Shown here piece by piece: positions 4,984-36,192 of a stretch of 64,000 nucleotides of DNA (its first letter is position 1; each line of letters opens with the position of its first letter). The position numbers and the translations under genes were made by a program. The DNA is from Ignavibacteriota bacterium. GTDB taxonomy: Bacteria; Bacteroidota; Ignavibacteria; Tepidaquicellales; OLB5. The stretch lies in contig RPQH01000008.1 in NCBI GenBank assembly GCA_003820375.1, positions 8,567 through 72,566 of the forward strand. Direction: 5' to 3'. Below the pieces are notes generated by a model that did no database searches, was not told the DNA's origin, and was given only the letters and a program-made list of their open reading frames with translations.

Positions 4984-5117
4984 ATTTCTAATTGTTAATT
5001 GCGAATTGATTTATCAATTTATCAGATGTGTCAGATTCATCAGATTTTTCAGATTGAATTTTCTTAATGAATCAATTTTTCAAAAAAACCGCAATTAACA
5101 ATTCGAAATTCGAAATT
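4984..5117. repeat. Inverted-repeat element with internal short repeats (no ORF)
   Basis: aattgttaattgcg (4990-5003) is the exact reverse complement of cgcaattaacaatt (5090-5103). tcagat recurs 4 times in the spacer, and the right end carries tcgaaat tcgaaat. Confidence 0.6.
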
Positions 5118-11797: not shown

Positions 11798-12070
11798 ATG
11801 GAAAAAACTATATTAATAATATTAATAGGTACAAGAAAAGAATCTGCAGTAACAGTACAGCAAGTGTTAACTGCATGGGGATGTATAATTAAAACAAGGT
11901 TAGGGCTTCATGACGGAGTGCTTGAAAACTGCACAAACCAGGGCACAGTAATTTGTGAGCTTTGCGGAACAAAAGAACAGAATGAAGAACTTGCTCACAA
12001 GATTAAAGTGATACAGGGAGTTTCATCTGAGCTTGTAACGGTAGGACTGGAAGAGCCAATTAAGAATTAA
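11798..12070 (+). CDS. TM1266-like small ACT/NikR-C-like protein (putative iron-only hydrogenase system regulator)
   Basis: The ORF track starts at TTG 11765, but ATG 11798 (MEKTILIILIGTRKESAVTVQQVL..RLGLHDG..VICELCG...IQGVSSELV) matches the length and pattern of the TM1266 family as I recall it. Confidence 0.5.
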   Translation: MEKTILIILIGTRKESAVTVQQVLTAWGCIIKTRLGLHDGVLENCTNQGTVICELCGTKEQNEELAHKIKVIQGVSSELVTVGLEEPIKN

Positions 12071-12077
12071 AATCTTT

Positions 12078-12138
12078 GGAGTGCAGTAACCGTGTTACTG
12101 CTATAACATTATTTGCAGTAACACGGTTACTGCACTCC
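12078..12138. repeat. 24-bp perfect inverted repeat (likely bidirectional terminator palindrome)
   Basis: ggagtgcagtaaccgtgttactgc (12078-12101) pairs with gcagtaacacggttactgcactcc (12115-12138) across a 13-nt loop. Each arm is also a self-hairpin. Confidence 0.8.
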
Positions 12139-12144
12139 ATACAC
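12115..12144 (+). repeat. 30-bp direct repeat, left copy
   Basis: gcagtaacacggttactgcactccatacac is identical to 13501-13530. Confidence 0.9.
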
Positions 12145-12172: not shown

Positions 12173-12204
12173 AAATAGTGAAATGGTGAAATAGTGAAAT
12201 AGTG
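12173..12204. repeat. Octamer tandem repeat (4 units)
   Basis: aaatagtg aaatggtg aaatagtg aaatagtg. Confidence 0.8.
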
Positions 12205-12287
12205 ATTAACAGGGAGTCCTGACAGACCAGAGAGATTTTCAATTAATCCAATGCTTTTTAAATCTTCAATTTCCGAAGGAGCTCGTA

Positions 12288-12351
12288 CTGCCAGTGTTTC
12301 TCCTGGATGTTTTGTAATTATAGAATTAATAAAAATCGATGACACTGGCAG
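12288..12351. repeat. Long-loop hairpin of the CTGYCAGTGT family
   Basis: ctgccagtgt (12288-12297) pairs with acactggcag (12342-12351). A third direct copy, gtactgccagtgtcac, lies at 12152-12167. Confidence 0.6.
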
Positions 12352-12816
12352 AATATGGAAGTACAGGATCCTTTGTTATTTGAAGGAGGGTTAATCATAA
12401 ATCTTATTTAATAATATTCATCACCGGTTAATTGGAGTTTTCAAGGGGTATGCTGTTAATCTCAATCTGGAGTTGTTTATAAAAATAATTACATAATATC
12501 AGTTCATAATTATATATATCAGTAACACCTTGTCTGTGTTCAATTGTAAATCCTCCATTCATCTTAAGCTGACGCTTGCCTGCCTGCCTCAGGCAGGTGT
12601 CTGGTGAATTTTTGTTAATCTAAGTTCTTTCTTTCCCTATCATATTCATCAATTAATCTAAGCTAATCCACATTGTCAAACTAACACCTGACACTGCCCT
12701 GTAATTTTTCAACCTTCCAACCTGTCATTCTTCATTAATTATGACCCCTTGACTGTCTTCAATTATCAATCTTCACCTTTGCGGTCTTAGCGGCTTGGCG
12801 TGGTGGTATATCGGCA

Positions 12817-13467
12817 AAAATTCAGAGTTGGGTTCAAAACAGTGCTAAGTTGGGTTCAAGTTGTGTCGGAGTTGGTATCAAGTTGGTATCAAGTTGGGTT
12901 ATCGTTTTTGGAAAACAGGGGTTAACTCATAGCAGTATAAGCAAATAACTCCGTCAGAAATGTGAGATTTTTGATTTAAGATTTGCGATTTTGAGCCAGA
13001 ATCGCTAATTTTTCATCAAAAAAAAAACTTCACTATATCATTAACCATTATCGCTATGGGAAAAATTTGGTAGCAAATATTTGTCGCTGTTGTTGGGGAG
13101 TTAAAGTAATACTTGAAGTTCATCCGTTTCAATTCCTGACACACCCCTTCCGCTTCGCTCCCTCCCCTCTCGAGAGGGGAATTCTTACCTCTTTATTTAT
13201 CCATGAGCTGAAATTGCTCAAAAAAGCACACTAAACACTCAATACACTCTAAGCACTCCACACACTCCAAACTATTTTTAGTTAAAACTTGACAATAAGC
13301 AATTACTATATTAAATTATACTGATAGTGCTTATATAGCTATATAAGCATAAATAACCGTTCTTTGTTAATATCGAAATGATATAAAGCATGTCGTAATA
13401 TTGTTCGAAAATGCTGCTAACGGATTTGGTTAGATTTTGGAGGGTTCAAAAAAATATGCACTGAAAA
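12817..13467 (+). repeat. ~0.65-kb non-coding repeat, copy 1
   Basis: Aligns along its length with 32584-33223 in the same orientation. The first ~470 nt are very similar by eye and the last ~170 nt are patchy. The track shows no ORF of 60 aa or more. Confidence 0.9.
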
Positions 13468-13500
13468 GTGCATATATATGTAAATCTACCTATTGTTATA

Positions 13501-13530
13501 GCAGTAACACGGTTACTGCACTCCATACAC
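13501..13530 (+). repeat. 30-bp direct repeat, right copy
   Basis: Identical to 12115-12144. It abuts the stop of the TonB-dependent receptor gene. Confidence 0.9.
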
Positions 13531-17523: not shown

Positions 17524-18886
17524 TCACAAAACTTGTGCCGCATCCTTTTTCATCAGCTAGTTTTGAAGGGCTTTTTACATCAACACTCCATCCGTGCTGT
17601 TCAACAATTTCTTTTACTATCGAGAGACCAAGACCTGTGCCTTCGTATCCTTTGTGCTTAATGTTAGTAGTTCTATAGAATTGCCTGAATATTTTCTGAA
17701 GCTCATTTTCGGGTATACCTATACCGTTATCGCTTACTTCCACTATTATATTGTTATTTTCATCTTCGTTTACTTCAACCAAAACCTTTCCTTCGTTAAA
17801 TGTATATTTCACAGCATTGCCAATCAGGTTTGAAAGTGCAAGGTCAAGAAGGACTTCATCTGCTGATACTTTATATTTCAGGATACGGTTATCGGTAAAT
17901 ACCAGGTTAATATTTTTTGAATGAGCATTTGCGCTTTTTTGTTCTATTGCTTTGCAAATAACCGCTTCAAGCTCCAGCGGTTCTTTTTTAATATTTTCAA
18001 GCAGCTTAAGCTTTGACATCTTCAATATATCACTTATAATTTCTATTCCTTCATCAAGGCGTTTTAATGTTCTTGTGAGCTTTTCTTCAACCTGCGGAGA
18101 AACCGGACCTAAATAATTATTGAGTATTATCTGAAGATATAATTGAGCCGCAACAATAGGTGACTTAATCTCATGAACAACAGCTATTGTATATTTTTGC
18201 TTTGCAGCTTCTGCTTCAAAAAGCTTATCCAGTGTACGCTGTAATTCTTCTTCCCTCTTATATAATTCACGGGCTATGCTGTTTGCTATAAAAATACTCA
18301 CGCCCATCATAAAGCTGAAACATGACGCGTATATAATAAAAAGATTTACATTTCCTCTTACGTCAGGAAACTTCAAACCTGAAATAAACAAAGTATTAAA
18401 CGCACCTGTAAATTGAAGATACCCTGTGATAGCATATATTATTATTATCAACCCAATCAACGGATATATAACCTTACCGGGCATATATAAACTGCCAATA
18501 ATTGCATGGAATATAAAGAACATTGCAAATGGGCTGATTATACCCCCTGTCACATAACAGACAAAAGATAATACTATTAAATCGGCAATAATCTGAATGA
18601 AGGCAAACAGGAAGGGATTAAAAAATTTATCTTCGTCAAGAGTAACTTTTTTCTGGACAGAATTGAATATTAAATTATATCCAAGCATTAATAGAGCAGC
18701 ACCGGTCAAAGAAAATAATTGAACCCGGCTAAGTCCGGCTTGCAGCAAAAACTCAAGTAATAATATCAAGCCTATCAGCATCCCAAACGCACCGAACCTC
18801 AGCTTTATGAACCATAAATTTCTTCTATAAATAAACCTCCAGTAAGGTTTAAATTTAAGTGTCCAATTTATTATAAAAGATTTCAT
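17501..18886 (-). CDS. Membrane sensor histidine kinase
   Basis: 461-aa ORF with a multi-TM N-terminal half, H-box VHEIKSPIV, and N/G boxes (GNAVKYT, DNGIGIP, GTGLGLSIV). Its 3' end overlaps the MFS gene by 23 nt (convergent). Confidence 0.85.
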   Translation of the reverse strand: MKSFIINWTLKFKPYWRFIYRRNLWFIKLRFGAFGMLIGLILLLEFLLQAGLSRVQLFSLTGAALLMLGYNLIFNSVQKKVTLDEDKFFNPFLFAFIQIIADLIVLSFVCYVTGGIISPFAMFFIFHAIIGSLYMPGKVIYPLIGLIIIIYAITGYLQFTGAFNTLFISGLKFPDVRGNVNLFIIYASCFSFMMGVSIFIANSIARELYKREEELQRTLDKLFEAEAAKQKYTIAVVHEIKSPIVAAQLYLQIILNNYLGPVSPQVEEKLTRTLKRLDEGIEIISDILKMSKLKLLENIKKEPLELEAVICKAIEQKSANAHSKNINLVFTDNRILKYKVSADEVLLDLALSNLIGNAVKYTFNEGKVLVEVNEDENNNIIVEVSDNGIGIPENELQKIFRQFYRTTNIKHKGYEGTGLGLSIVKEIVEQHGWSVDVKSPSKLADEKGCGTSFVIIIPHTD

Positions 18887-18899
18887 GATATAACAAATA

Positions 18900-18931
18900 T
18901 AACAAAAGCCGGAGATAGAATCCCCGGCTTT
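18900..18931 (-). terminator. Terminator after hydA
   Basis: On the minus strand: aagccgg / ccggctt stem followed by tttgtt. Confidence 0.55.
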
Positions 18932-18944
18932 AATAAATTATTAA

Positions 18945-20837
18945 TTAAGCTATGTATTTTCCTCTTTTTACATAATGCGTATGCAGCAGCTTATGAGAAA
19001 GCTTGCCGCATGGACCGTCTGTTAAGAATTTTTCATAAAGCATCTTAACATAAGGATTTTCATGTGATTTTCTTACAGTCAATCTTTCTTCTTCGGAATA
19101 AATTGCCTGCGCACGTTTTGTCCTAATTTCTTCACTAGTAGGAATTGGCTGACCGCCGCCGCCGATACATCCGCCCGGGCATGCCATTATCTCTATAAAA
19201 TGAACATCGTTCAATTCACCACGCTTTAACATTTCCATAACCAACTTTGCGTTTGCTGTTCCATGTGCTACGATAAATTTTACTTCAACGCCTTCAAGGA
19301 ATTTCCATTCTTCTCTTACGTTTTCTAATTTTACCGATGCCTGTTTTATTCCTTCAAATCCCCTGCATGGCTCAATATTTAAATTCTTGAAGGGTACTTC
19401 CCTGCCGGTTACCAGCTCATATACTGTTCTCAAAGCAGCTTCCATTACACCACCTGTTGCACCGAATATAAGTCCTGCACCTGAAGCTTCACCAAACGGG
19501 CTGTCAAATGTAGTTTCGGGCATTTCGGGTAAATAGATACCTGCTTCTTTTATCATCTTTGCCATTTCTCTTGTAGTCAAACCGTAATCAACATCTTTAA
19601 ATCCTGATGAATTCATCTCAGGCCTGTTGCATTCAAATTTCTTTGCTGCACATGGCATTAAAGCAACCGATACAACATCTGCCGGATCAATACCTGCCTG
19701 CTTGGCATAAAATGTTTTGATAATTGCACCAAACATTTGCTGAGGTGATTTAGCACTTGACATATGGTCAAGATACTGAGGATAAAAATGCTCAATATAT
19801 TTCACCCAACCCGGTGAGCATGATGTAAACTGCGGCAGCCTTACATTCGGGTCTTTATCAACCAATGCTGATTTTAACCTTAGAAGTAATTCTGTTCCTT
19901 CTTCCAATATGGTTAAGTCAGCAGTGAAGTTAGTATCAAATACTGCATCAAAACCAATTCTCTTTAAAGCAGTGTTTAGCTGTCCTGTCATCGAGTGTCC
20001 TGCACCAAGTCCAAATTCCTCGCCTATTGCCGCACGGGGAGAAGGTGCAGTCTGTATTACAACATGTTTCTTCGGGTCATCGATTGCTGACCATATTTCA
20101 TCAGACGGGTCATTTGCATGAAGTGCAGCAGTCGGGCACCTGTTGATACACTGACCGCAATTGATACAAATCACATCAGCAAGAGGTTTATCCATAAATG
20201 TGCTGATATGTGTCTGGTCACCGCGGTGCACTGCTTCAAGCACGCCAACTTCCTGTAAGTCGATACAGGTTCTTACACAGCGTTTGCAAAGAACACATTT
20301 GCTCATATCTCTTATTACCGAAAGTGAAGATTTATCTGTTTCATATTTCGGTTTTGTAACGTGACCGAAAGTATATTTATCCACACCATATTCTTCAGCA
20401 AGCTTTTGAAGTTCGCAGTTCTGGTTCCTGATACAGCTGTAGCATTCGCCGTAGTGTTCACTCAGTAATAAATCAATTATATTCTTTCTTGCTTTTCTTA
20501 CTGTTGGAGTAGATGTTTTTATTTTTATAGGTGATGTAATCGGGAAAGCACATGCTGCCTGTAAGGTTCTTATACCTTCAACCTCGACAACGCATACACG
20601 GCAAACACCGGCCACACAAAGGTCTTCATGATGGCATAATGTAGGTACATGTATCTGGTTAATTTTACATGCTTCAAGAATAGTTGTACCAAAAGGTACG
20701 CTTACTTTCTTTTCATTAATTTCAACACTAATGCTTCCGCCAATTGTATTCAGGTCTTCCTGTTTTTGTATTGTGTGCCCTTTCTGGCTTAAAGGGCTTC
20801 TTGATGTACTGCTTTTATCTGACATACTTGCCTCCAT
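18945..20837 (-). CDS. hydA: [FeFe]-hydrogenase catalytic subunit (multimeric NADH-type, M3-like architecture)
   Basis: 630-aa ORF. It has a 2Fe-2S N-domain, the His-ligated motif HYGECYSCIRNQNC, and two CxxCxxCxxxCP motifs. H-cluster motifs are FTSCSPGW (variant L1), MPCAAKKFE (L2) and EIMACPGGCIGGGGQP (L3). Confidence 0.92.
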   Translation of the reverse strand: MEASMSDKSSTSRSPLSQKGHTIQKQEDLNTIGGSISVEINEKKVSVPFGTTILEACKINQIHVPTLCHHEDLCVAGVCRVCVVEVEGIRTLQAACAFPITSPIKIKTSTPTVRKARKNIIDLLLSEHYGECYSCIRNQNCELQKLAEEYGVDKYTFGHVTKPKYETDKSSLSVIRDMSKCVLCKRCVRTCIDLQEVGVLEAVHRGDQTHISTFMDKPLADVICINCGQCINRCPTAALHANDPSDEIWSAIDDPKKHVVIQTAPSPRAAIGEEFGLGAGHSMTGQLNTALKRIGFDAVFDTNFTADLTILEEGTELLLRLKSALVDKDPNVRLPQFTSCSPGWVKYIEHFYPQYLDHMSSAKSPQQMFGAIIKTFYAKQAGIDPADVVSVALMPCAAKKFECNRPEMNSSGFKDVDYGLTTREMAKMIKEAGIYLPEMPETTFDSPFGEASGAGLIFGATGGVMEAALRTVYELVTGREVPFKNLNIEPCRGFEGIKQASVKLENVREEWKFLEGVEVKFIVAHGTANAKLVMEMLKRGELNDVHFIEIMACPGGCIGGGGQPIPTSEEIRTKRAQAIYSEEERLTVRKSHENPYVKMLYEKFLTDGPCGKLSHKLLHTHYVKRGKYIA

Positions 20838-22032
20838 TCTTTCCCGGATTGAATATCTCGTCCTTAAAATTATCTAAAATTGAAATGAAAGCATTAGGGC
20901 TTGATTGTCCCAGGCCGCACTTGGAAGCAACCTGCATTGTTTTTCCAAGCTCTTTTAGTTGATTAATGTAAGAGAATGTAAATTTATTATTCTCTATCAT
21001 TTCGATACCTTCAAGAAGCTTCACATTACCAATTCTGCAGGGAGTACATTGCCCACAGGATTCTTCAACAAAGAACTCCATAAAATTTTTCAAAATATGG
21101 AGCATGTTCCTGCTCTTATTAAATATCATTATAGAACCACCCGTAGCAACATCTTCATAAGATATGGTTCTATCGAATTGTGATTCAGGAATGCAGATGC
21201 CGGAAGCACCTCCAACCTGTACAGCTTTTGTATCTTTAGCACCTACTATAGTAAGCAGGTCACTAATTTTAATTCCCCATGGCAGTTCATATACGCCCGG
21301 TTTTTCACAATCACCGGATATGGAGAATAATTTAGAGCCGGATGATTTCCCGGTTCCCTGTTTTGCAAACCACTCTCCGCCTTTTACCAATATTTTCGGA
21401 ACGGAAGCTAGAGTTTCGACATTATTCACAGATGTTGGTTTGCCCATAAATCCTGTATTAACCGGGTAAGGAGGACGGTTCCTTGCTTCACCGCGGTTAC
21501 CTTCAAGTGATTCTATTAAAGCTGTTTCTTCTCCGCATACATAAGCTCCTGAACCCATGCGGATAATGATATCAAAGTTAAAGTCTTTTTTCCCCAGTAT
21601 GTTTTTTCCTAAAAGGTTATCTTCACGCATTTTCTTTAAGTAGTCTTCAAGAAAACTAAGCATGTATTCGTATTCACCTCTTAAGTATACTATTCCTTTT
21701 TGTGCTCCAACAGTATATCCGCCGATAACCATGCCGTCAAATACTATTTCAGGATATTCTGTTAAAAGAACGCGGTCTTTGAAAGTACCCGGTTCTCCCT
21801 CGTCAGCATTGCAAACAATATATTTAATATCAGACTTTGCGGCAGCCGTGAGCATCCATTTTGTAGCAGTTGGGAATCCGGCACCGCCTCTGCCTTTTAA
21901 TTTCGATATTTTTAACTCGTATAAAATATCTTCTCTTCCAAGCTTTAGAGCTTTCTCGATACCTTCGCCTCTTTTATAAGAAGAGAAAAGTACCTTGCCT
22001 TCTCTTTGTGTTTTTTTATATACAGATTCCAT
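20815..22032 (-). CDS. hydB: NuoF-like NADH-binding flavoprotein subunit, short form
   Basis: 405-aa ORF with GRGGAGFPT (FMN site) and ESCGQCTPCR (N3-type 4Fe-4S). It has no N-terminal 2Fe-2S domain and no C-terminal 2x[4Fe-4S] domain. Confidence 0.9.
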   Translation of the reverse strand: MESVYKKTQREGKVLFSSYKRGEGIEKALKLGREDILYELKISKLKGRGGAGFPTATKWMLTAAAKSDIKYIVCNADEGEPGTFKDRVLLTEYPEIVFDGMVIGGYTVGAQKGIVYLRGEYEYMLSFLEDYLKKMREDNLLGKNILGKKDFNFDIIIRMGSGAYVCGEETALIESLEGNRGEARNRPPYPVNTGFMGKPTSVNNVETLASVPKILVKGGEWFAKQGTGKSSGSKLFSISGDCEKPGVYELPWGIKISDLLTIVGAKDTKAVQVGGASGICIPESQFDRTISYEDVATGGSIMIFNKSRNMLHILKNFMEFFVEESCGQCTPCRIGNVKLLEGIEMIENNKFTFSYINQLKELGKTMQVASKCGLGQSSPNAFISILDNFKDEIFNPGKNGGKYVR

Positions 22033-22506
22033 TTATTTTATTTCATTAAGTATTTCAACAGCTTTTTCAGGTGTTAAGCGGGTAAAAACCCTGTCATTCA
22101 CCATCATTGCCGGTCCCTGGTCGCACATACCGAGACAATTTGTATATTCAAGTGTTATCTTTTTATCCGGTGTTGTTTCACCGAACGATATTCCAAGCTC
22201 TCTTGTAATAGCGGATTCAACATTTTCTTTGCCTGAAATATCACAGATTATAGTTCTGCACAACCTCACGATATTTCTGCCCCTTGGCTTAGAGTGTAAG
22301 AAAGAATAAAACGTAACTACACTGTAAACCTCAACAGGATGAATATCAAGCTGAAGTGCTATTTCCTGCATTGCGAAATCAGGTACATACCTGTATTTCC
22401 TTTCCACTGCCTGCAGGATAGGCAGCAGAGATGACCTGTCCTTACCGTATTGCTCAACAAGCCGTTCTATCTCTTCGGTTAAAGATGTTCTTTCCGAAAC
22501 TAGCAT
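22033..22506 (-). CDS. hydC: NuoE-like thioredoxin-fold 2Fe-2S subunit
   Basis: 157-aa ORF with Cys pattern CRTIIC...CLGMC. Confidence 0.9.
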   Translation of the reverse strand: MLVSERTSLTEEIERLVEQYGKDRSSLLPILQAVERKYRYVPDFAMQEIALQLDIHPVEVYSVVTFYSFLHSKPRGRNIVRLCRTIICDISGKENVESAITRELGISFGETTPDKKITLEYTNCLGMCDQGPAMMVNDRVFTRLTPEKAVEILNEIK

Positions 22507-22886
22507 ACTTGCTCCTTAGATTTTTTTAACAGATTTTCAACTTTACTAATTAGCTGTGCCGGTGAAATCGGTTTTTCAACAAAATCATCAACAGGAACCA
22601 TTTCACTCTTGCCAAAATCCATACCAACGGTCTTGGAAATTGATGTGTACATAATGATCGGAGTAGTGATTTTTTCTTTTCTTAACCTCTGGGCAAGAAA
22701 GAAGCCATCATCCGGTTCATCCATCATAACATCAAGAATTATAAGATCCGGGGTTTTTTCCTTAATTAAATTGTATGCGTCAGTAGGATTACCTGCGGTA
22801 ATAACCTCATATCCCTTAGCCGATAAAACGAGGGTGCTTGCATCGCGGATATCGGGGTCATCGTCTATTATTGCTATTAAAGCCAT
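22500..22886 (-). CDS. Single-domain (CheY-like) response regulator, first gene of the [FeFe]-hydrogenase operon
   Basis: 128-aa ORF with IIDDDPD...LIILDVMM receiver signature. It overlaps hydC by 7 nt. Confidence 0.85.
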   Translation of the reverse strand: MALIAIIDDDPDIRDASTLVLSAKGYEVITAGNPTDAYNLIKEKTPDLIILDVMMDEPDDGFFLAQRLRKEKITTPIIMYTSISKTVGMDFGKSEMVPVDDFVEKPISPAQLISKVENLLKKSKEQVC

Positions 22887-23042
22887 TTGACCTCCATTTA
22901 TTTACAATACAAAATTACTCACTCCTAACCCCATAAACAATGAGATAAATCATGTTTTTATGTCGGTATATATTATGCATTTATTATTAACTTGAAAGGC
23001 AGGGATTTTTGAGCTAAATTAATTTAATTATGATATCTTAAT

Positions 23043-25031
23043 ATGGGAAAGATATCCACAAAAAGTATTCAGTCACAGTTAATACTGTACTTCACAATTG
23101 CAATTCTTGTACCTGTTATTGTAATAAGCATAATTGCATCTAAGTTCATCTATAACGAAATTACCAACCGTGCCGAAAGCAAAAGTATTTCCGACCTGAA
23201 CTCAGCGGGTGAAATTTATAATCACCGGATATCACAAATTGAAAGCATAACCCGCTTAACCGCAGGCAGAAGCTTTATTATCTCATCTCTGATTGAAAAT
23301 AAAGCCGATACTTTATACAAGGAGCTTCACACCATCCTTCAGAACGAAAAGCTTGATATATTCACTATAGTTGACAAAAACGGCAAGGTTATATGCCGCG
23401 GCAGAAATTCATTCAATTCGGGTGATTATATAACTTCCGATAAATTTATCAAAAGAGTTCTTGAAACAAAAAGCACGGTATCGGGAACCGATATTGTAAG
23501 CCCGGATGAATTGAAAAAAGAAGCATTCGAGCTGGCTGACAGGGCTTATATGGAAGTGAAGCCAACCCTCATGTCAAGGGAAAGGTCTGAAAAATTCGAG
23601 AAAAACGGTATGATGATGAAGTCAGCCTCTCCGTTGTTTGATAAGAATAAGAATATCGTCGGCGTACTGATGTCAGGTGTTCTTTTGAACAGGAATTACG
23701 ATATAGTAGATAAAATTAATAATGTTGTTCATGAAAACGAAGTGTATAAAGGGCAGGATATTGGGACTGTAACAATATTTGAATACGATGTGCGTATTGC
23801 AACCAATGTTAAAAACGAAGACGGTTCGTATGCTGTTTCAACACTTGTTTCGGAAGAAGTGTATGACGAGGTAATCCTTGCCGGGCAAAAGTGGATTGGT
23901 GATGCGTTTGTGGTTAATTCCTGGTATGTATCCGCTTACAAACCGATTAGAGATATTAATGACAGGGTTATCGGTATCTTATATGTGGGAATTTTAAAAC
24001 AGCCGTTCAATGACCTTCTGCTTAATACGATATTAATATTTTCCTCAATAGCAATTGTTACGGGTATAATAATATTTTTCGTAGCGGTGATGTTTGCAAA
24101 AAAGATATCAGCCCCTCTGCGCAAGCTGGAAGAATGGGCAAAACAAATAGCGGACGGTACGTATAAATCCAATATAGCTATTAAAGCGCCGCGTGAGATA
24201 GAAAGCCTTTCTTTGTCGCTAAATTTAATGGCAAAACAGCTTGAACAGGAAAAGTTTGAGCTTGAGAACTGGGCTGAAACTCTTGAGAATAAGGTTAACC
24301 AGAGAACAGAGGAATTAAAGAGGATAAATGACCAGCTTTTCAGGTCAGAGAAGCTTGCATCAATTGGTAAGCTTGCCGCAGGCGTTGCTCACGAGATAAA
24401 TAATCCGCTCACAGGCGTACTGACCAACAGCAGCTTAATGCTTGAAGACCTTGAAGAAAATGACCCGCGAAGAGAAGATTTGCAGGTTGTGGTTAACGAA
24501 ACCATAAGATGCAGGGAAATCGTAAAACGCCTGCTTGATTTTGCCCGGCAGACCAAGCCGCAGAAAAAAATGACCGACCTGAATGCCCTGATAGAGAATA
24601 TTATTCTGCTTGTCAGAAATCAAAGTGCTTTCAGGAATATCATTATCAAAAAAGTACTGGATACTTCTATTCCGCAAATAATGGTTGATGCAGACCAGAT
24701 ACAGCAGGTTTTTATCAATTTCATTCTGAATGCCTCGGAAGCTATGCCAAATGGCGGTCAGCTTGTAGTTAATACATCATTAAACCATGCCCGGGATTAT
24801 ATTGAAATTAAGTTTTCCGACAGCGGCTGCGGTATTTCGGAGAAGGATAAAAGAAGAATTTTTGACCCGTTCTTTACCACAAAACAGCAGGGCACGGGAT
24901 TGGGATTATCGATTAGCCACGGAATAATAGAGAGACATGGAGGAAAAATTATTTTAGACAGTGAATTGGGAAAAGGTACATGTTTCACAATATTTATGCC
25001 GGTAAACTATAACAGTGATATTGATGATTGA
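23043..25031 (+). CDS. Sensor histidine kinase with periplasmic Cache-like domain and HAMP
   Basis: 662-aa ORF with two TM segments flanking a ~290-aa extracytoplasmic domain. H-box is AHEINNPLTG; the ATPase part carries GTGLGLSISHGI. Confidence 0.85.
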   Translation: MGKISTKSIQSQLILYFTIAILVPVIVISIIASKFIYNEITNRAESKSISDLNSAGEIYNHRISQIESITRLTAGRSFIISSLIENKADTLYKELHTILQNEKLDIFTIVDKNGKVICRGRNSFNSGDYITSDKFIKRVLETKSTVSGTDIVSPDELKKEAFELADRAYMEVKPTLMSRERSEKFEKNGMMMKSASPLFDKNKNIVGVLMSGVLLNRNYDIVDKINNVVHENEVYKGQDIGTVTIFEYDVRIATNVKNEDGSYAVSTLVSEEVYDEVILAGQKWIGDAFVVNSWYVSAYKPIRDINDRVIGILYVGILKQPFNDLLLNTILIFSSIAIVTGIIIFFVAVMFAKKISAPLRKLEEWAKQIADGTYKSNIAIKAPREIESLSLSLNLMAKQLEQEKFELENWAETLENKVNQRTEELKRINDQLFRSEKLASIGKLAAGVAHEINNPLTGVLTNSSLMLEDLEENDPRREDLQVVVNETIRCREIVKRLLDFARQTKPQKKMTDLNALIENIILLVRNQSAFRNIIIKKVLDTSIPQIMVDADQIQQVFINFILNASEAMPNGGQLVVNTSLNHARDYIEIKFSDSGCGISEKDKRRIFDPFFTTKQQGTGLGLSISHGIIERHGGKIILDSELGKGTCFTIFMPVNYNSDIDD

Positions 25032-26430
25032 TACAAAAGCCGAAATTTTAATAGTAGATGATGAATTAGTGATTTGCAAAAGCTGCGAAAAGATATTCAA
25101 ACGCTCAGGACATAACACAACTTATGCAACGGGAGGTGTAGAGGCTTTAAATATCCTCGAGACCCGCGAGTTTGATGTTGTGTTCACAGACCTGAAAATG
25201 ATGGATATGGGCGGAATGGAAGTGCTCAGAACCGTTAGGCAGAAATACCCCGATACTCTTGTCGTAATAATAACAGGTTATGCTACCATTGCTTCTGCAG
25301 TTGAAACCATGCGGTACGGTGCATTCGATTACCTGCCGAAACCCTTTACTCCTGCTGAGCTTATTGCCGTGCTGAATAAAGCACTTGAGAAAAGAAAGAT
25401 TATAAAGATAACATCGAATAAATATAATTACTGCCATGAAACAGGATTCGAAGGATTAATAGGCAGAAGCAAAGAGATGTGCGAAGTTTATGACATGATA
25501 AGAAAAGTCGGGGAAACCGACAGTACTGTATTAATTATCGGAGAAAGCGGAACAGGAAAAGACCTAACTGCAAAAGCAATTCACAATGTTAGCAAAAGGA
25601 AAAATGAAAAGTATATTCCGATAGATGTATCTACACTTTCATCCGGCATACTGGAAAGTGAATTGTTTGGTCATGTGAAGGGTGCCTTTACAGGTGCTTA
25701 TACTAGCAAAGAGGGATTGTTCGAAGCGGCAGATAAAGGAACGGTATTTCTTGATGAGATTGGTAACCTGCCTTTGGAAACTCAATCACGCTTACTACGG
25801 GTGCTTCAGCAGAAAGAAATTATTCCCGTTGGCAGTACTGATGTAAAAAAAGTTGATGTAAGATTAATATTTGCTACAAACAGTGACCTGAAACAGCTTG
25901 TAATGAGCAATAAGTTCAGGGAAGACCTATACTATAGAATAAATGTATTCCCCATTAAGCTGCCGCCATTGAGAGTAAGAAGAGAAGATATCCCCGATCT
26001 TGCCCTGCATTTTCTCAGGCATTACTGTGTTTTATCGGAGCGGGTAGTACCGGAAATGGATGTTGAAGCAATGGAGATACTAATGAATTTCCACTGGCCG
26101 GGTAATGTAAGAGAGCTTGAACATACTATGGAGCGTTTAACAATACTTTCTGATGGTCCGGTAATCACACCTGCACATGTATCAGCTGCAATATATAAAG
26201 CAGATGCGCCGATGAAATCAGCCCCAAGGACAGTTGAAGAGCTTAAACAGATTAAGAAACAGATGAGAGATTATTCCATACAGGAAATTGAGAAGATGTT
26301 TATAATAGATGCATTGATGCGAAACAACTGGAACATCTCGCAAGCCGCGCGAGAAGTAAACATGCAGCGTCCAAACTTCCAGGCATTGATGAAGAAGTAT
26401 GGAATAAAGAAACCTGTTACCGGCGTGTAA
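25015..26430 (+). CDS. Sigma-54-dependent response regulator (NtrC family)
   Basis: 471-aa ORF with a receiver domain, an AAA+ domain (GESGTGKD and the GAFTGA loop) and a C-terminal Fis-type HTH. Confidence 0.92.
   Translation: MILMIDTKAEILIVDDELVICKSCEKIFKRSGHNTTYATGGVEALNILETREFDVVFTDLKMMDMGGMEVLRTVRQKYPDTLVVIITGYATIASAVETMRYGAFDYLPKPFTPAELIAVLNKALEKRKIIKITSNKYNYCHETGFEGLIGRSKEMCEVYDMIRKVGETDSTVLIIGESGTGKDLTAKAIHNVSKRKNEKYIPIDVSTLSSGILESELFGHVKGAFTGAYTSKEGLFEAADKGTVFLDEIGNLPLETQSRLLRVLQQKEIIPVGSTDVKKVDVRLIFATNSDLKQLVMSNKFREDLYYRINVFPIKLPPLRVRREDIPDLALHFLRHYCVLSERVVPEMDVEAMEILMNFHWPGNVRELEHTMERLTILSDGPVITPAHVSAAIYKADAPMKSAPRTVEELKQIKKQMRDYSIQEIEKMFIIDALMRNNWNISQAAREVNMQRPNFQALMKKYGIKKPVTGV
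26360..26414 (+). repeat. 55-nt direct repeat, copy 1 (functional 3' end of the sigma-54 regulator gene)
   Basis: 51 of 55 nt are identical to 28227-28281. Confidence 0.9.
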
Positions 26431-26570
26431 ATATTGATGCTTTTAAGCATCAATATAGGTATAAAATGAGCATATTGTAGCCTTTACGCTACATTACATC
26501 TTGCAATTCTACATAATATTTTATATATTAACAGCATAAAAGCTTTCAACATATAAAATAACCGGTTATT

Positions 26571-26915
26571 GTGATAACAAGAAGAAATAGAAACTGGGAA
26601 GAAATGGCTGATCCTGCCGTTGTTAAAGAAATTGGAAATGCTTTAAAACAGATGCGGCTCAATGTAAACCTTTCTCAGGAACAGCTTGCAAAGAAATCCG
26701 GATTGGACAGAACTACAATAAGCCGTATAGAATCAGGCAGAGCTGCAACATTACTTTCACTGGTACAAATATTACGTGCATTAGATAAGCTAAACATAAT
26801 GAACATATTCGTTCAGGAACCGGAGATTAGTCCCATAAAATTATTAAAGCTTCAGGAAAAAAAACGTCAAAGAGCATATCACCATAAATCTAAAGAAACA
26901 GGAAACAATAAATGA
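26571..26915 (+). CDS. hipB: HipB-like XRE-family HTH antitoxin
   Basis: 114-aa ORF with an HTH (LSQEQLAKKSGLDRTTISRIESG). It overlaps hipA by 4 nt. Confidence 0.8.
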   Translation: MITRRNRNWEEMADPAVVKEIGNALKQMRLNVNLSQEQLAKKSGLDRTTISRIESGRAATLLSLVQILRALDKLNIMNIFVQEPEISPIKLLKLQEKKRQRAYHHKSKETGNNK

Positions 26916-28204
26916 ATACTGTTGCAAGAGTAAATATATGGGGTATGATGGTCGGGGCTATTGCGTGGCGTGATGAAACAGGATATGCAGTTTTTGAATT
27001 TGACCCTGACTTCATTAAAAAGGGAGTAAACTTAGCCCCATTAAAAATGCCATTAGAGGAAGCATTAAATGGAAGAATGATTTATTCATTCCCTGAATTA
27101 AATAATACTACATTTAAAGGATTACCGGGAATGTTGGTTGAAAGTTTGCCTGACAGATTTGGAAATACGATTATTGATGCATGGCTTGCACGCCGGGGAG
27201 GAGAACAAAATTTTAATTCTGTAGAAAGGTTATGTTATATTGGTAAAAGAGGGATGGGAGCTCTTGAGTTTGAACCGGTAATTCCGTTAATAGATGATGT
27301 TTCGGAATCAATTCAAATAAGTGAACTTGTTAACCTGACCAAAGAAATACTTAATGAAAGAAAAGATCTCGCTGTTAATATCCACGATGAAACAACAGAT
27401 GGATTATTGAAAATAATAAGAGTCGGAACATCGGCGGGAGGCAACAGAGCGAAAGCAATTATTGCATATAATGAAAACACCGGTGATGTCCGTTCCGGAC
27501 AGATTGACGGATTAAAGGACTATAGCTATTGGATTATAAAATTTGATGGTATTAATGATAAAGAATTAGGTGATCCGAAAGGTTATTGCAAAATTGAATA
27601 TGCATATTACCTTATGGCGACAGATTGCGGAATAATTATGACTGAATGTAAAACGCTGAATGAAAACCACCGCACTCACTTTATGACAAAAAGGTTTGAC
27701 CGTGACGGAATAAATAAGATTCATATGCAGTCTTTATGTTCGATAGCACATTTTGATTTCAACTTAGCAGGAGCATATTCGTATGAACAGGCATTTCAAA
27801 TAATGCGAAAGCTGAAACTGCAATATAGTGACCATGAACAATTGTACAGGAGAATGGTATTTAATGTAATAGCAAGAAATCAGGATGATCATACTAAGAA
27901 CATTTCTTTTCTAATGGATAAAGCAGGAAAATGGGGTTTATCACCTGCATATGATGTAACTTATGCTTACAACCCTGATAATATTTGGCTGCGTTCACAT
28001 CAAATGTCAATAAATGGAAAACGGGATGATATAACCGGGAATGATTTAATTGAAGTCGCTGAAAATATGAATATAAAAAAGCCGAAAGAAATTATACAGA
28101 TTGTTTTGGAAACGGTTTCCTGCTGGCGTGAGTATGCAAAAAAAGCAAATGTTAATGCAGAACATCAAAAAAAGATTTATAATGCTTTACAATTGAAAAT
28201 ATAG
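26912..28204 (+). CDS. hipA: HipA-family serine/threonine kinase toxin
   Basis: 430-aa ORF with the catalytic motif QDDHTKNISF and HipA N-terminal coupling-domain features. Confidence 0.9.
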   Translation: MNTVARVNIWGMMVGAIAWRDETGYAVFEFDPDFIKKGVNLAPLKMPLEEALNGRMIYSFPELNNTTFKGLPGMLVESLPDRFGNTIIDAWLARRGGEQNFNSVERLCYIGKRGMGALEFEPVIPLIDDVSESIQISELVNLTKEILNERKDLAVNIHDETTDGLLKIIRVGTSAGGNRAKAIIAYNENTGDVRSGQIDGLKDYSYWIIKFDGINDKELGDPKGYCKIEYAYYLMATDCGIIMTECKTLNENHRTHFMTKRFDRDGINKIHMQSLCSIAHFDFNLAGAYSYEQAFQIMRKLKLQYSDHEQLYRRMVFNVIARNQDDHTKNISFLMDKAGKWGLSPAYDVTYAYNPDNIWLRSHQMSINGKRDDITGNDLIEVAENMNIKKPKEIIQIVLETVSCWREYAKKANVNAEHQKKIYNALQLKI

Positions 28205-28226
28205 AAAAATTATCCTGTAGATTTAT

Positions 28227-28281
28227 ACATGCAGCGTCCAAACTTCCAGGCCTTGATGAAGAAGCATACAATAAAGAAACC
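28227..28281 (+). repeat. 55-nt direct repeat, copy 2 (orphan copy of the regulator 3' end)
   Basis: Would encode MQRPNFQALMKKHTIKKPAATK*, against MQRPNFQALMKKYGIKKPVTGV* in the live gene. Confidence 0.9.
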
Positions 28282-28520
28282 AGCAGCAACCAAATAATTA
28301 ATATACACACATTCCGTTATCCCGGGTAACGAAAACGCATTATTTTACCCTAACCTATTGAAAAATAATATGTTTATAATTATATTGCGACATACAGAAT
28401 TTCTTGTTCTGTTCTGCATCGAAAACTACTAGAACAAACTTCACTCGATACAGGACGTATTGTGGTTGCGTCTTGGAGAATCTTTAGCAACTGAAAAATA
28501 TTTTTTTATAAAACATTGAA

Positions 28521-30287
28521 ATGGAGACAGATTTATTTATGAAAAGTTTCATCTTTTCACTGTTTATAATATTTATATATTCTATTCAATTTTATTGCCA
28601 ATGGCAACCGGATGTAAGATTAACAAATAATAATTATGGTTCCGGTACGTCTATAAACAATGCCAAAAATATAGCTTCTTATGGAAATATTATACATGTT
28701 GTTTGGAATGATGGACGTAATGGTTATGATGATATATATTATAAACGCTCAACAAATAGTGGTCTAAACTGGGGGGAAGACATAAGATTAACTACTGATC
28801 CAAACAGCTCACAGGGAGCTTCAATAGCTGTATCTAACCAATACGTGCATGTTGTATGGAGAGATTATAGAGATGGACATCATGAAATATATTATAAACG
28901 TTCAATCGATGGAGGTATAACATGGCAAACAGATGTTCGACTAACTAACACATTGTACGATTCTATGGATCCCTCTTTAGCATTATTGGATTCAGTCCTG
29001 CATGTAGTTTGGCACACTAATCGTGATGGAGGTCTGGAAATTTATTATAAAAAATCAACAAATAATGGGGTGAACTGGGGGGCAGATAATAGATTAACAA
29101 ACAATTCAGCAATTTCAGCCTATCCTTCAATTGTAGCATATGGTTCATATGTTCACGTTGCATGGTATGATGAACGTGACAATAATAAGGAGATATATTA
29201 TAAAAAATCAACCAATACCGGTATAAATTGGGAATCTGACTTAAGACTAACCTATGACACAGCGAACTCGATGTATTCATCTATATCAGCGTCAGGCAAT
29301 AACATCTTTGTTGCTTGGGGTGATAATAGAAATGGGAACTATGAGATATATGGTATAAAGTCGACCAATAATGGCATTAACTGGTCAAATGATATTAGGT
29401 TAACTAATAATTCCAGTATCTCCAATTTTCCCAATATTGTAATTTCAGATAATATTTTTCATGTCGTGTGGCATGATTTCAGGGATGGAAATTACGAAAT
29501 ATATTATAAACGATCTACTAGTGCCGGTTTAAACTGGGAGTCAGATTACAGGTTAACAAATGCTTCTGATATTTCAGAATTTGCATCAGTATGCTTATTA
29601 AATACATCTGTAAATATAGTTTGGATGGATTATAGGGATAATAATCCGGAAATTTATTATAAACAAAACCCAACAGGTAATATAATAGTGATACCGCCAC
29701 CTGCACCAAATCTTATAGCTCCTCTAAATAATTCGACCGGACAATCATTAACACCATTGATGGATTGGGGAGATGTAACAAGCGCTATAAGTTACAGAAT
29801 CCAGATAACAACAACTGATTCTACAGCATTTTCAACAACAGTTTTTGATTCAAGTGGTATTACATCATCACAAGTTACAGTACCTTCAGGAAAACTTCAA
29901 AATAATACAAAGTATTGGTGGAGAGTTAATGCTCAAAATGCAGCAGGTGCCGGTCCGTGGTCAGTTGTTTGGAATTTTAGAACATTATTTTTAGGAATAG
30001 TAAAGGATAATGAAATACCTAAAGAATTTAAGCTATATCAGAATTATCCAAATCCCTTCAATCCAACAACACAAATTGAGTTTTCTATTCCCAAAAACAA
30101 TATTCATGTCAATATAATAGTATATGATGTATCAGGAAAAATTGTATCTATATTAGTAAATGAAAAACTAAATGCAGGTACTTATAAAGTAGATTTTAAT
30201 GGAGAAAGTTTAGCAAGCGGGGTTTGTTTTTACAAACTGGAAACTGAAGGATTTGTTGAGACGAAAAGAATGGTAATTTTAAAATAA
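28521..30287 (+). CDS. Secreted BNR/Asp-box repeat protein with FN3-like and T9SS C-terminal sorting domains
   Basis: 588-aa ORF with a signal peptide (probable start M7 at 28539). About 7 repeats of YYK[RK]S.N.G.NW follow, then a C-terminal NYPNPFNP..YDVSGK T9SS domain. Confidence 0.8.
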   Translation: METDLFMKSFIFSLFIIFIYSIQFYCQWQPDVRLTNNNYGSGTSINNAKNIASYGNIIHVVWNDGRNGYDDIYYKRSTNSGLNWGEDIRLTTDPNSSQGASIAVSNQYVHVVWRDYRDGHHEIYYKRSIDGGITWQTDVRLTNTLYDSMDPSLALLDSVLHVVWHTNRDGGLEIYYKKSTNNGVNWGADNRLTNNSAISAYPSIVAYGSYVHVAWYDERDNNKEIYYKKSTNTGINWESDLRLTYDTANSMYSSISASGNNIFVAWGDNRNGNYEIYGIKSTNNGINWSNDIRLTNNSSISNFPNIVISDNIFHVVWHDFRDGNYEIYYKRSTSAGLNWESDYRLTNASDISEFASVCLLNTSVNIVWMDYRDNNPEIYYKQNPTGNIIVIPPPAPNLIAPLNNSTGQSLTPLMDWGDVTSAISYRIQITTTDSTAFSTTVFDSSGITSSQVTVPSGKLQNNTKYWWRVNAQNAAGAGPWSVVWNFRTLFLGIVKDNEIPKEFKLYQNYPNPFNPTTQIEFSIPKNNIHVNIIVYDVSGKIVSILVNEKLNAGTYKVDFNGESLASGVCFYKLETEGFVETKRMVILK

Positions 30288-30421
30288 ATAACTTAAAAGA
30301 AGCTAAAAAATAAAATTACATTATTAGCCATAGCGTTACACTCTATAATATCATTAAAGTTTTCCCAAAAAATTAATTACGGTTAAATATACCGTAATAT
30401 TAAAAACCTTAGGAGGTATAT

Positions 30422-31192
30422 ATGAAATTATTTCTTCAAACAATTATTATTCTTGCAGTCCTGATTTCTACGGGCGTAACTTATTCACAGCAATATGAAG
30501 ATGTGGTCTATTTAAAAGACGGAAGTATTATTCACGGCACTATTATCGAACAGGTTCCGAATGTATCAGTTAAAATAAAGACAAAAGATGGAAATGTTTT
30601 TGCCTACAAGTATGAAGATATACAGAAATTTACAAAAGAGGAAGTAAAAGGAAGCTTGTATTCGTATGAAGAAAACACAAAATATGGTAACGATGGTTTC
30701 CGCTCAGGTAAATTTTTATTAGGTTTAAAAGCCGGGTATGGTGATTGGGGAAGCTTAACATATGGAATAAATTTTGAAATAGGGGTCTCTAATAATTATG
30801 GTATAGCATTGGACGTAGCATATACTTCCTGGGAAGAAGGACCTTATACTGGGAGTGTATATAACTCACATACTAATGAGTACGAAGATTATTCATATAG
30901 ATATGATTATAATTTAATCGGTGGATTGCTAAGTATGTCTTATCATTTTAGTCCCGGTAAAAAATTAGATTTATATGCTAAGGCAGGAGCTGGTTATTTC
31001 TATATTGATGCCAGTACTAAATGGTTACAGCAGCCTAATTCAGGTTATTTTTCTACTATTGGTGCCGAGGCTTCCGGTGTTGGTTATGGAGGTCAGGCAG
31101 GTATGAATTATTTCTTAACTAAAAATATTGGATTATCACTTTCAGCAGGATGGCCGTTTTATGCCAGCGGTGGTGTAACATTTAAGTTTTAA
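30422..31192 (+). CDS. Outer-membrane beta-barrel (porin-family) protein
   Basis: 256-aa ORF with an RBS (aggaggt), a signal peptide, a Gly/Tyr-rich alternating pattern and a terminal F. Confidence 0.65.
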   Translation: MKLFLQTIIILAVLISTGVTYSQQYEDVVYLKDGSIIHGTIIEQVPNVSVKIKTKDGNVFAYKYEDIQKFTKEEVKGSLYSYEENTKYGNDGFRSGKFLLGLKAGYGDWGSLTYGINFEIGVSNNYGIALDVAYTSWEEGPYTGSVYNSHTNEYEDYSYRYDYNLIGGLLSMSYHFSPGKKLDLYAKAGAGYFYIDASTKWLQQPNSGYFSTIGAEASGVGYGGQAGMNYFLTKNIGLSLSAGWPFYASGGVTFKF

Positions 31193-31259
31193 AAAATAAT
31201 AATATATTGTTTCTCTCCTTCCCAAATTTTACAATGGGAAGGAGTGTTTTAATAAACCC

Positions 31260-32495: not shown

Positions 32496-32583
32496 TATAT
32501 ATTCACTTAAATTTTATACTCAAATAATTTATTGGGAATCATTATAGTGACAAATCCTGCATTTTTACTGACAATTTTTCTCT

Positions 32584-33223
32584 AAAATCAGAGTTGGGTT
32601 CAAAACAAGTCGGAGATGGGTTAAAGTTGTGTCGGAGTTGGGTTCAAGTTGGTATCAAGTTGGGTTATCGTTTATCAAAAACAGGGGTTAACTCATTGCA
32701 GTATAAGGAGATAACGCCGTCAGAAATGCGAGATTTTTGATTTAAGATTTGCGATTTTGAGCCGGAATAGCCAATTTTTCATCAAAAAAAAACTTCACTA
32801 TATCATTAACCATTATCGCTATGGGAAAAATTTGGCAGCAAATATTTGTCGCTGATGTTGGAGAGTTAAAGTATTACTTGAAGGTATTTCCGGTTCATTA
32901 TCAAACACACCCCTTCCGCTTCGCTCCCTCCCCTCTCGAGAGGGAAATCCTTACCTCTTTATTTATCTATTGATTAAAATTGCTTAAAAAGCACTCTAAA
33001 CACTCTATACACACTAAGCATTCTATACACACCAATCTATTTTTAAATAAAACTTGACAAACACAAATATCGTAAATACATTTGTATAGTGATAAATATT
33101 ATCACTTAATACAGTTCTTTAATAATATAGAGATGGTTTACAGCATGTCGTAATATAGCTGTAAAATGATGCTCACGAATTTGGTTAGATTTTGAAATGT
33201 TGAAAAAAATATGCACTGAAAAA
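32584..33223 (+). repeat. ~0.65-kb non-coding repeat, copy 2
   Basis: Colinear with 12817-13467. It begins 88 nt upstream of the minus-strand T9SS gene start. Confidence 0.9.
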
Positions 33224-33234
33224 TACCCTAAGGA

Positions 33235-33360
33235 CAATTAGCAATGAACAATTAGCAATGAACAATTAGCAATGAACAATGAGCAATGAACAATTAGCAA
33301 TGAACAATGAACAATGAACAATAAGCAATGAACAATGATCAATGAACAATTATCAATGAA
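33235..33360. repeat. Heptamer tandem array (18 units of CAATNRN)
   Basis: caattag caatgaa alternation with variants caatgag, caataag, caatgat and caattat. Confidence 0.9.
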
Positions 33361-33659
33361 GAGCTTAAGAGCCGGAAGTGAAGAGTAGATGATATATAGT
33401 GAATAAATAATGACTCCGGGTGTGTTCTATTGAAAATCCTGCAAATCTGTCTGCCTTTGGTGGAAGCTTCGGCGCAGGGAGGATCTTCGACTTACCTCGC
33501 ATAGACGCCCAACTCAAGACTCCTGGTTCACGACTCATTTTATACACCTGTATATTTTTTTTATACGGTTTTCGTTATTTCTCTTTTTTTTAATTATCTT
33601 CATACCGCAAAATTCTACTTAAATGCACATTTTGTTGAATCTGACAGGTAATTCTGATA

Positions 33660-33675: not shown

Positions 33676-33718
33676 TTAGTTATATACAGAATTAAAAACC
33701 AAAGGAGAACACAAAAAA

Positions 33719-36179: not shown

Positions 36180-36192
36180 GAAAAATAAAGGA

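Follow-up and report, generated by a model that had tools for sequence, protein, structure and literature searches.

The mosaic intergenic repeats BIME of the enterobacteria, BOX of Streptococcus pneumoniae, and NIME and Correia of Neisseria are 30-300 bp long and built on palindromes or inverted repeats, and some mosaic intergenic repeats carry protein-binding sites or outward promoters. Direct repeats of 11 bp are used in iteron-type plasmid and phage origins and in centromeres of the R1 parC type, and the long direct repeats (LDR) of E. coli are type I toxin-antitoxin loci of ~500 bp with their own promoters. Here we describe an element of ~650 bp that occurs twice in a 64,000-nt stretch of contig RPQH01000008.1 (positions 8,567 to 72,566, hereafter the window) from an Ignavibacteriota bacterium. 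The window is chromosomal DNA of ~37% GC from an anaerobic member of the Ignavibacteriales; it encodes PFOR, [FeFe]- and [NiFe]-hydrogenases and cargo proteins of the type IX secretion system (T9SS), and its best relatives are metagenome-assembled genomes (MAGs) of Ignavibacteria. The two copies belong to a previously undescribed family in an uncultured lineage of Ignavibacteriales, with at least 21 copies that have identical sharp ends and lie in unrelated intergenic contexts. With moderate confidence we read the element as a lineage-specific, non-autonomous interspersed mosaic element, which combines a protein-binding array with an outward promoter and would have spread without terminal inverted repeats (TIRs). 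It may formerly have been mobile and since have been partly domesticated.

A family of intergenic copies with a fixed modular order

A preliminary description of the window had noted two colinear copies in the same orientation, with no open reading frame (ORF) of 60 aa or more. Direct reading and alignment bore this out. Both copies read on the + strand, their longest internal ORFs are 55 aa and 50 aa, and they align with 88% mean column identity in MAFFT (flanks included) and with 84.2% identity over 653 nt in BLASTN (684 bits). Identity between them is 90-96% in the left ~320 nt and ~80% in the right ~200 nt. The right ends, first placed at 13467 and 33223, had to be moved outward to 13472/13477 and 33233 by comparison with the further copies described below. 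With these refined ends, copy 1 runs from 12817/12822 to 13472/13477 (whole unit 12817-13477, from end-to-end alignment with copy 2 and 19 metagenomic copies) and copy 2 from 32584 to 33233 (alignment, BLASTN and profile search).

The further copies were retrieved by scanning JGI metagenomes with a 23-mer common to both window copies. The scan returned 20 loci from samples Ga0105092 and Ga0209819; subtraction of two duplicate loci and addition of a second, divergent copy on the L004 contig (L004b) gave 19 distinct further copies, all on contigs of related Ignavibacteriales. They are 75-91% identical to copy 1 and have the same sharp boundaries, (A)AAAATCAGAGTTGGG … GAAAAATRCMCTAAAG. Profiles of the left and right parts of the element (the left one matching copy 1 with E=1e-100 in nhmmer) always co-occurred in searches of the loci, in the same order and spacing, and neither was ever found solo. 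The invariant 23-mer was absent among 185,579 GTDB species representatives. The 650-nt unit gave a single chance low-complexity match when compared with phage and plasmid records (BLASTN, distant mode) and no match in exact-pattern scans of IMG/VR. Matches to the 11-mer pattern in IMG/VR, in a siphovirus tail region and a GVMAG contig, have only the tandem unit in common with the element and were judged to be due to chance.

Alignment of the 21 copies revealed a fixed order of modules: the 11-bp array with the left core, a replaceable cassette, a promoter-like site with a hairpin and the right core, and usually a tail of tandem heptamers. The left module (~330 nt) opens with seven phased 11-bp units, each composed of a 7-nt core (GTTGGGT) and a 4-nt spacer. 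Tandem Repeats Finder reported a period of 11 with 4.9 and 4.5 copies in the two window arrays and the consensus AAGTTGGGTTC. The array occupies 12826-12902 in copy 1, where ~7 units resemble this consensus, and 32592-32668 in copy 2, where the pattern count agrees (both + strand). Initially, 5-6 units of AGTTGG(G/T)(T/A)TCA had been seen; the period stands, and the number of units in register is now seven. The two-unit pattern occurs five times in the window, always within the two copies, against an expectation of 0.02. The remainder of the left module, at 12903-13140 (+) in copy 1 according to the 21-copy alignment, contains a GATTTnn heptamer sub-array and the block ACTTCACTATATCATTAACCATTATCGCTATGGGAAAA. 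A sub-block of the left core is replaceable and was found in three variants, two of which are heptamer arrays.

The central cassette measures 130-250 nt and comprises at least five mutually unalignable types, whose building blocks are GC-rich hairpins (CCCCTCTCGAGAGGGG, CCCCCTTCGAAAGGGGG) that lead into T-rich DNA, and heptamer arrays. Copy 1 has the type 1 cassette (13141-13273, +, from the alignment of copies), in which the GC palindrome tcccctctcgagagggga (13163-13180) is followed by a T-rich stretch and a CACTC-rich run (13227-13272, Tandem Repeats Finder). The palindrome is perfect in copy 1, and its counterpart in copy 2 (32929-32945) has one mismatch. We thus recovered the gatttt-rich stretch (as GATTTnn), the GC-rich palindrome (18 nt) and the CAC/CTA-type run that the preliminary description had listed.

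The right module (~200 nt) starts with an A/T-rich tract and ends with ~130 nt conserved in sequence alone; it lies at 13274-13477 in copy 1 (alignment and profile search) and at 33039-33233 in copy 2 (profile search and promoter-site comparison), in both cases on the + strand. In ~15 of 19 copies a tail of 30-150 nt follows, in which units of 7 or 9 nt, of several kinds, are repeated in tandem. Copy 2 has a tail of 127 nt (33234-33360, +), which consists of the heptamers CAATTAG/CAATGAA, (ACAATTAGCAATGA)n, with a period of 14 and 9.1 copies in Tandem Repeats Finder. Copy 1 is atypical in that it has neither the usual right tip (…ATRCMCTAAAG) nor a heptamer tail. Reading by eye placed a terminator-like hairpin 30-150 nt beyond the tail in most copies, usually belonging to the convergent neighbour; an automatic terminator scan of the right flanks, which was set too strict, returned nothing. 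An internal duplication of the left and right modules was tested and dropped.

The promoter-like site, its hairpin and the question of an RNA product

In the promoter-like site of the right module, the -35 hexamer is TTGACA in 18 of 20 copies, and the distance to the -10 hexamer is 17 nt in every copy that could be parsed (19/20), with a spacer of varying sequence. The -10 hexamer is TAAATT in 15 copies and TACATT in three (18/20 together); the three TACATT copies, copy 2 among them, read TACATTTG, which also fits the TAnnTTTG motif of Bacteroidota. Both window sites were found exactly where they had been described, TTGACA-N17-TAAATT at 13289-13317 in copy 1 (-35 at 13289-13294, -10 at 13312-13317) and TTGACA-N17-TACATT at 33054-33082 in copy 2 (-35 at 33054-33059, -10 at 33077-33082). 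Downstream of the -10 hexamer, a hairpin of 7-13 bp is present in 19 of 20 copies and falls into three unrelated sequence classes; in the window it lies at 13328-13349 in copy 1, followed by ~130 nt kept in sequence only, and at 33088-33106 in copy 2. Hence the observation that the two window copies carry different palindromes 3' of the promoter-like site, with position kept and sequence diverged, holds for the family.

Two conserved hexamers at a fixed spacing of 17 nt are consistent with a bacterial promoter of the sigma-70 type or the Bacteroidota TTTG…TAnnTTTG type. Matches to this pattern in a single sequence are not rarer than chance (5 found, 7.7 expected from shuffles), and the site carries weight only because it is conserved across 20 copies. 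Two related candidates were rejected. A minus-strand promoter in the invariant block, TTGCTA-N18-GATAAT, is lost in the divergent copy L004b, and its conservation is biased because it lies inside the 23-mer used for retrieval. The 8-9-nt complement TCACTATAT / ATATAGTGA that could have indicated an inverton was found in no more than 6 of the 20 copies, and the segment was never seen in the opposite orientation.

The view of the element as a non-coding module was supported by the coding tests. No ORF with a conserved start and stop exists across the 21 copies, no copy is a homolog with an intact ORF of the kind that a decayed gene would predict, and the small ORFs of the copies have no Pfam match at E ≤ 1. 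Short ORFs do occur in several frames of the 11-mer region, and a 23-aa minus-strand ORF is found in 10 of 20 copies, which might point to a decayed protein-coding gene or to a long direct repeat resembling a type I toxin-antitoxin locus with a small peptide. However, this ORF is shortened to 10 aa in copy 1 and has other lengths in variants, and indels between copies shift the frames; together with the empty Pfam search, this leaves such an origin with next to no credibility.

The option of a structured RNA gene, also raised in the preliminary description, fails. Rfam gave 0 gathering-score matches in the window and none at E ≤ 1-10, and in 15 further loci (132 kb) it found two tRNAs only, both outside the element. 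RNAalifold gave the left module a structure conservation index of 0.18 (+) and 0.13 (-), and the right module one of 0.02 (+) and 0.07 (-); 10 pairs without any compensatory change were predicted in the right module, and weak, scattered pairs only in the left module. Single-sequence folds had z-scores of -2.3 (+) and -0.8 (-). The only structure kept despite sequence change is the short hairpin just 3' of the promoter-like site. These results also bear on a long, structured non-coding RNA, and on a ribozyme or intron without an ORF, for instance a group IIC intron or a guide of the omega-RNA or bridge-RNA type. The ~650-nt length, the many ORF-free copies near terminator hairpins and the local hairpins would suit such an RNA, but with no Rfam family in the window or in 15 further copies, indices of 0.02-0.18 on both strands, weak pairs with essentially no compensatory changes and a central third that cannot be aligned, we consider it highly improbable.

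The right module could also encode a small RNA (sRNA) of little structure. According to this explanation, the copies are selected multi-copy sRNA genes, joined to a left-module platform for a regulator of the OmpR/PhoB or LytTR type, and persist through selection rather than through mobility; the right module would supply the promoter, a 5' hairpin, an unstructured conserved seed region, the heptamer tail and a borrowed terminator, for which the terminator-like hairpins seen by eye 30-150 nt past the tail in most copies would qualify. Conservation of the hexamers around a variable 17-nt spacer, of hairpin structure despite changing sequence, and of every module despite 11-23% divergence all favour this explanation, as does the location of some copies between convergent genes, where a cis-regulatory role is impossible. 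Winged-helix response-regulator sites have a layout of a 7-nt core and a 4-nt spacer, which the array matches. Yet the array lies ~470 nt upstream of the promoter-like site, with the unalignable cassette between them, and is therefore too far away for ordinary activation, and the unit contains neither a conserved fold nor a terminator. Duplicated sRNA genes normally have only the promoter and the RNA in common, unlike the copies described here, which also have 330 nt of upstream DNA in common, and both window loci are insertions relative to sister genomes. We therefore regard a selected sRNA family, the main rival of the mobile reading, as possible and rather unlikely. It is compatible with a mobile element, and the same unit may be such an sRNA gene now or have been one all along.

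Genomic context, evidence of insertion and proposed spread

The genes beside the copies are unrelated housekeeping or accessory genes in either orientation. The right end of the element faces the 3' end of a gene in 11 of 18 copies and a 5' end in 7 of 18, and the copies at L006 and L017 both sit between two convergent genes, the former wedged in with flanks of 41 nt and 20 nt. T9SS cargo proteins, recognised by their C-terminal domain, are the only recurrent neighbours (24 of 179 ORFs, at 14 loci); a rep-like family was neither seen nor recurrent among the Pfam-scanned neighbours of ~20 copies. The T9SS genes, and the co-directional gene located 146-495 nt past the right end in the 7 copies, could suggest a promoter cassette or other cis-regulatory unit for adjacent genes. 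The 11 copies facing a convergent gene's 3' end and the two copies between convergent genes largely refute this idea. Moreover, the response-regulator gene after copy 2 has its own sigma-54 promoter, TGGCACGGCAATTGCT (33660-33675), which is also present in the element-free contigs L101 and L102, and we consider a cis-regulatory function very unlikely. This sigma-54 promoter is a perfect match, located 44 nt upstream of the gene, which encodes a double-receiver response regulator, and is consistent with control by the adjacent pair of sensor kinase and sigma-54 activator.

Sister genomes have no element at either window locus, which is evidence that the copies there arrived by insertion. We compared the loci with related contigs, among them the Logan contigs L101-L103 (relatives at ~82% nucleotide identity); a profile search found no element copies in L021-L104. 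At the copy 1 locus, the order of genes for malic enzyme, a 90-aa ORF and a convergent TonB receptor is conserved in relatives, and the gap between the 90-aa ORF and the receptor gene is 1461 nt in the window versus 82 nt in L103, 27 nt in the JGI contig P0122 and 105 nt in L023. At the copy 2 locus, L101 and L102 are colinear with 17529-26416 and 33528-44870 at 81-83% nucleotide identity and are without the 7.1 kb between them (26417-33527); in these contigs 457 and 229 nt separate the sigma-54 activator gene from the response-regulator gene that directly follows it. The 7.1-kb island encodes HipA, a BNR/T9SS protein, an outer-membrane beta-barrel protein and a second T9SS protein, and holds copy 2 at its right edge. 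At a third locus, L006, the element is located exactly at a difference in gene order relative to L104.

Two further differences from the sister genomes were seen around these loci. An insert of 1.87 kb contains the toxin gene hipA (26912-28204) and has a 63-nt direct repeat (89% identical) on each side (26352-26414 and 28219-28281); the repeat is the 3' end of the sigma-54 activator gene, which looks like site-specific integration, and L101 and L102 are without this insert. Synteny with L101/L102 breaks at 17529 and at 51922-52705, where hypA/hypB abut a histidine kinase gene in these contigs. The hypA/hypB DNA is ~34 kb away and inverted in the window, and in L103 the neighbourhood of copy 1 follows [NiFe]-hydrogenase genes; these differences therefore indicate a large rearrangement between sister genomes.

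The insert that holds copy 1 has a flanking footprint. It measures 1.36 kb and is bracketed by a 30-nt direct repeat, GCAGTAACACGGTTACTGCACTCCATACAC, which was located by repeat search at 12115-12144 and 13501-13530 (both +), the right copy abutting the stop codon of the TonB-dependent receptor gene. The repeat forms an 8-bp hairpin, and an inverted copy of it is present at 12079-12102; the repeat and this inverted copy are probably the original bidirectional terminator. Directly after the 90-aa ORF, 12069-12141 forms a long near-perfect hairpin, whose right arm recurs as the duplicate at 13501-13530; matches of this hairpin to microRNA precursors scored far below gathering and were spurious. 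In another genome, the same 26 nt are present on both sides of the L017 copy, between type I restriction and aminotransferase genes. We found no further occurrence of this 26-30-nt hairpin sequence in the window or among related loci (~0.3 to 0.36 Mb), and no flanking direct repeats for the 17 other copies. Either insertion at a hairpin duplicates the hairpin, or a larger unit that carries the hairpin moves. In 19 copies, comparison of the left with the right flanks or ends brought up no recurring inverted repeat of at least 9 nt, and the inverted repeats inside the element are local hairpins only.

The family has diverged unevenly along its length. On average, two copies are 89% identical in the array region, 84% across what remains of the left module and 77% over the right module, and the centre cannot be aligned. 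The closest pairs reach ~96% in the left part, 93.5% in the mid-left part and 91% in the right part, and there are no near-identical copies. Identities of the modules are uncorrelated (r = 0.17, 0.14 and -0.13), and the variants of sub-block, cassette and hairpin are unlinked among copies. It follows that the family is old, and that its copies are either star-like in descent or were shuffled by recombining with each other. Every module is nevertheless retained in all 20 copies that lie clear of contig ends, even at 11-23% mean divergence, which, with the conservation of hexamers over spacer, argues for some constraint.

For a mosaic element of this kind, the data suggest the following scheme. 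The seven units at an 11-bp phase would present one face of the helix as a cooperative platform for a DNA-binding protein encoded elsewhere, candidates being a recombinase or transposase, or a binder of the winged-helix or iteron type. TTGACA-N17-TAAATT would fire rightward and yield an RNA of ~150 nt that has a hairpin at its 5' end but is otherwise largely unstructured; this RNA would run into the heptamer tail and then the neighbour's terminator, and in 7 of 18 copies might read into the co-directional gene. Spread without TIRs or short target duplications could have involved tyrosine, serine or HUH-type recombination, or recombination at repeats, with insertions favouring terminator-proximal intergenic DNA at gene ends. 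The central cassette may be dispensable filler that turns over by slippage or replacement. Of the options listed in the preliminary description, a non-autonomous mobile element and an iteron platform fit best, given at least 21 dispersed copies, empty orthologous sites and the phased array.

Several points weigh against this interpretation. None of the known hallmarks of transposition was found: the element has no TIRs and no consistent target duplication, and a check for known IS or MITE families gave no match. No transposase or integrase family is recurrent among the neighbour ORFs, with none in the 52 neighbours scanned, and none of the 21 copies is an autonomous, ORF-bearing one. The absence of near-identical copies means that there is no sign of recent movement. 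The genomes with empty sites are too diverged or have another neighbour, and the insertion junctions are not fixed to the base. The 23-mer used for retrieval biases the sample toward copies with an intact left core. A TTGACA-type -35 is rare upstream of the genes of this lineage (2 of 115 upstream regions), and the promoter function of the site is therefore only putative. Finally, a selected cellular function would explain the retention of full-length copies and their blocky conservation equally well. A bolder version of the scheme, which we consider improbable, is a new class of non-autonomous mobile element in which a trans-encoded recombinase acts on the 11-bp array, the outward transcript aids targeting or integration at terminator hairpins, and the 26-30-nt hairpin duplications are the footprint.

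Neighbouring repeats and comparison with known systems

Other small repeats populate the intergenic regions of these genomes. One of them, separate and MITE-like, measures ~130-170 nt, has the inverted ends GTGTCWGGTG…CACCTGACAC and is found at 12543-12712, at 8059-8208 of L009, in L020 and, inverted, in L007; it adjoins several of the 650-bp copies, at distances that vary. L101 and the left flanks of six copies contain a related small element, whose ends are GTCAGCGTC/GACGCTGAC. A hairpin repeat of ~70 nt (CGTACTGCCAGTGT … ACACTGGCAG) lies at 12283-12355 and in L016, L009 and L013, in both orientations and in intergenic DNA around copies. The 14-nt palindrome TCCGCCTAGGCGGA is inserted in the L007 copy (~5650) and recurs near the copies of L020 and L012; this small, REP-like unit seems to insert independently.

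Tandem arrays of 7-9 nt are likewise common (5008-5055, 12173-12205, 31450-31474, 33234-33360, 56607-56633, 57033-57063 and many of the related loci) and tend toward the edges of inserted or repeated units. The array at 31441-31476 lies within the C-terminal coding region of a T9SS gene and runs in the opposite orientation to the tail of copy 2. At 56597-57062, a 23S_rRNA_IVP/four-helix-bundle gene (Pfam PF05635, E=2.7e-25) with an in-frame stop near 56930 is placed between inverted GTTAGAA heptamer arrays (36 nt, 94% complementary) and resembles a small inserted unit. Elsewhere in the window, 58931-63830 holds three tandem minus-strand genes (552, 547 and 524 aa) with internal units of ~160 nt and stretches of ~240-265 nt that are 86-90% identical; the three genes are a recently duplicated repeat-protein cluster.

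If the 650-bp element is mobile or recombinogenic, it marks variable parts of the genome, as both window copies lie in DNA missing from sister genomes and T9SS genes cluster near copies; a mobile element would also give a handle on a non-DDE way of spreading DNA in Ignavibacteria. If it is a selected sRNA gene with a binding platform, the family is a large set of regulators that has escaped annotation, in a phylum where hardly any sRNAs are known. Either way, the family accounts for long 'empty' intergenic regions and probable assembly breaks in MAGs of Ignavibacteriales, and the left and right profiles from this analysis can be used for annotation.

Among known systems, the BIME, BOX, NIME and Correia mosaic repeats also have many ORF-free intergenic copies, often after gene ends, and a modular build with variable middles; the multi-copy, intergenic occurrence, fixed block order and variable inserts of our element are those of an interspersed mosaic element. 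It differs from these repeats by its length of ~650 bp (two to ten times longer), the lack of TIRs, the 77-bp phased array of direct repeats and the full bipartite promoter-like site. Miniature inverted-repeat transposable elements (MITEs), which derive from DDE elements, are similarly multi-copy, non-coding, sharp-ended and absent from orthologous sites in relatives; unlike them, the element has no TIRs, no fixed short target duplication and no related ORF-bearing element. An IS200/IS605-type PATE or an end that bears an omega-RNA would have subterminal hairpins on both sides and a structured guide RNA (Rfam IS605-orfB families); the left end here is a direct-repeat array without a hairpin, with no Rfam match and indices of at most 0.18. 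Group II (IIC) introns start with 5' GUGYG and have a conserved domain V/VI (Rfam Intron_gpII or D1-D4 models), whereas the ends of the element are AAAAAUCAGAG… and …CUAAAG on the + strand and it has no Rfam match at E ≤ 10.

With iteron origins and parC, the element has in common 5-7 tandem direct repeats, spaced by a helical turn and placed beside A/T-rich DNA and a promoter. It differs from them in that no rep or par gene is adjacent, in its at least 21 chromosomal copies, where an iteron origin would belong to a single-copy replicon, and in the ~470 nt between array and promoter-like site. It resembles the E. coli LDR loci in appearing ORF-free at a 60-aa cut-off and in having its own promoter-like sites, and differs from them in that the copies showed neither a small hydrophobic ORF that is conserved nor an antisense pair. 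Heptanucleotides repeated in tandem have been described from cyanobacteria (as STRR), from Beggiatoaceae and from some Bacteroidetes (PMC4679880). Tandem heptamers likewise make up the tails, left flanks and internal sub-arrays of the element, and similar arrays exist elsewhere in the window; unlike the reported repeats, which are arrays alone, the arrays here punctuate and flank a conserved 650-bp unit.

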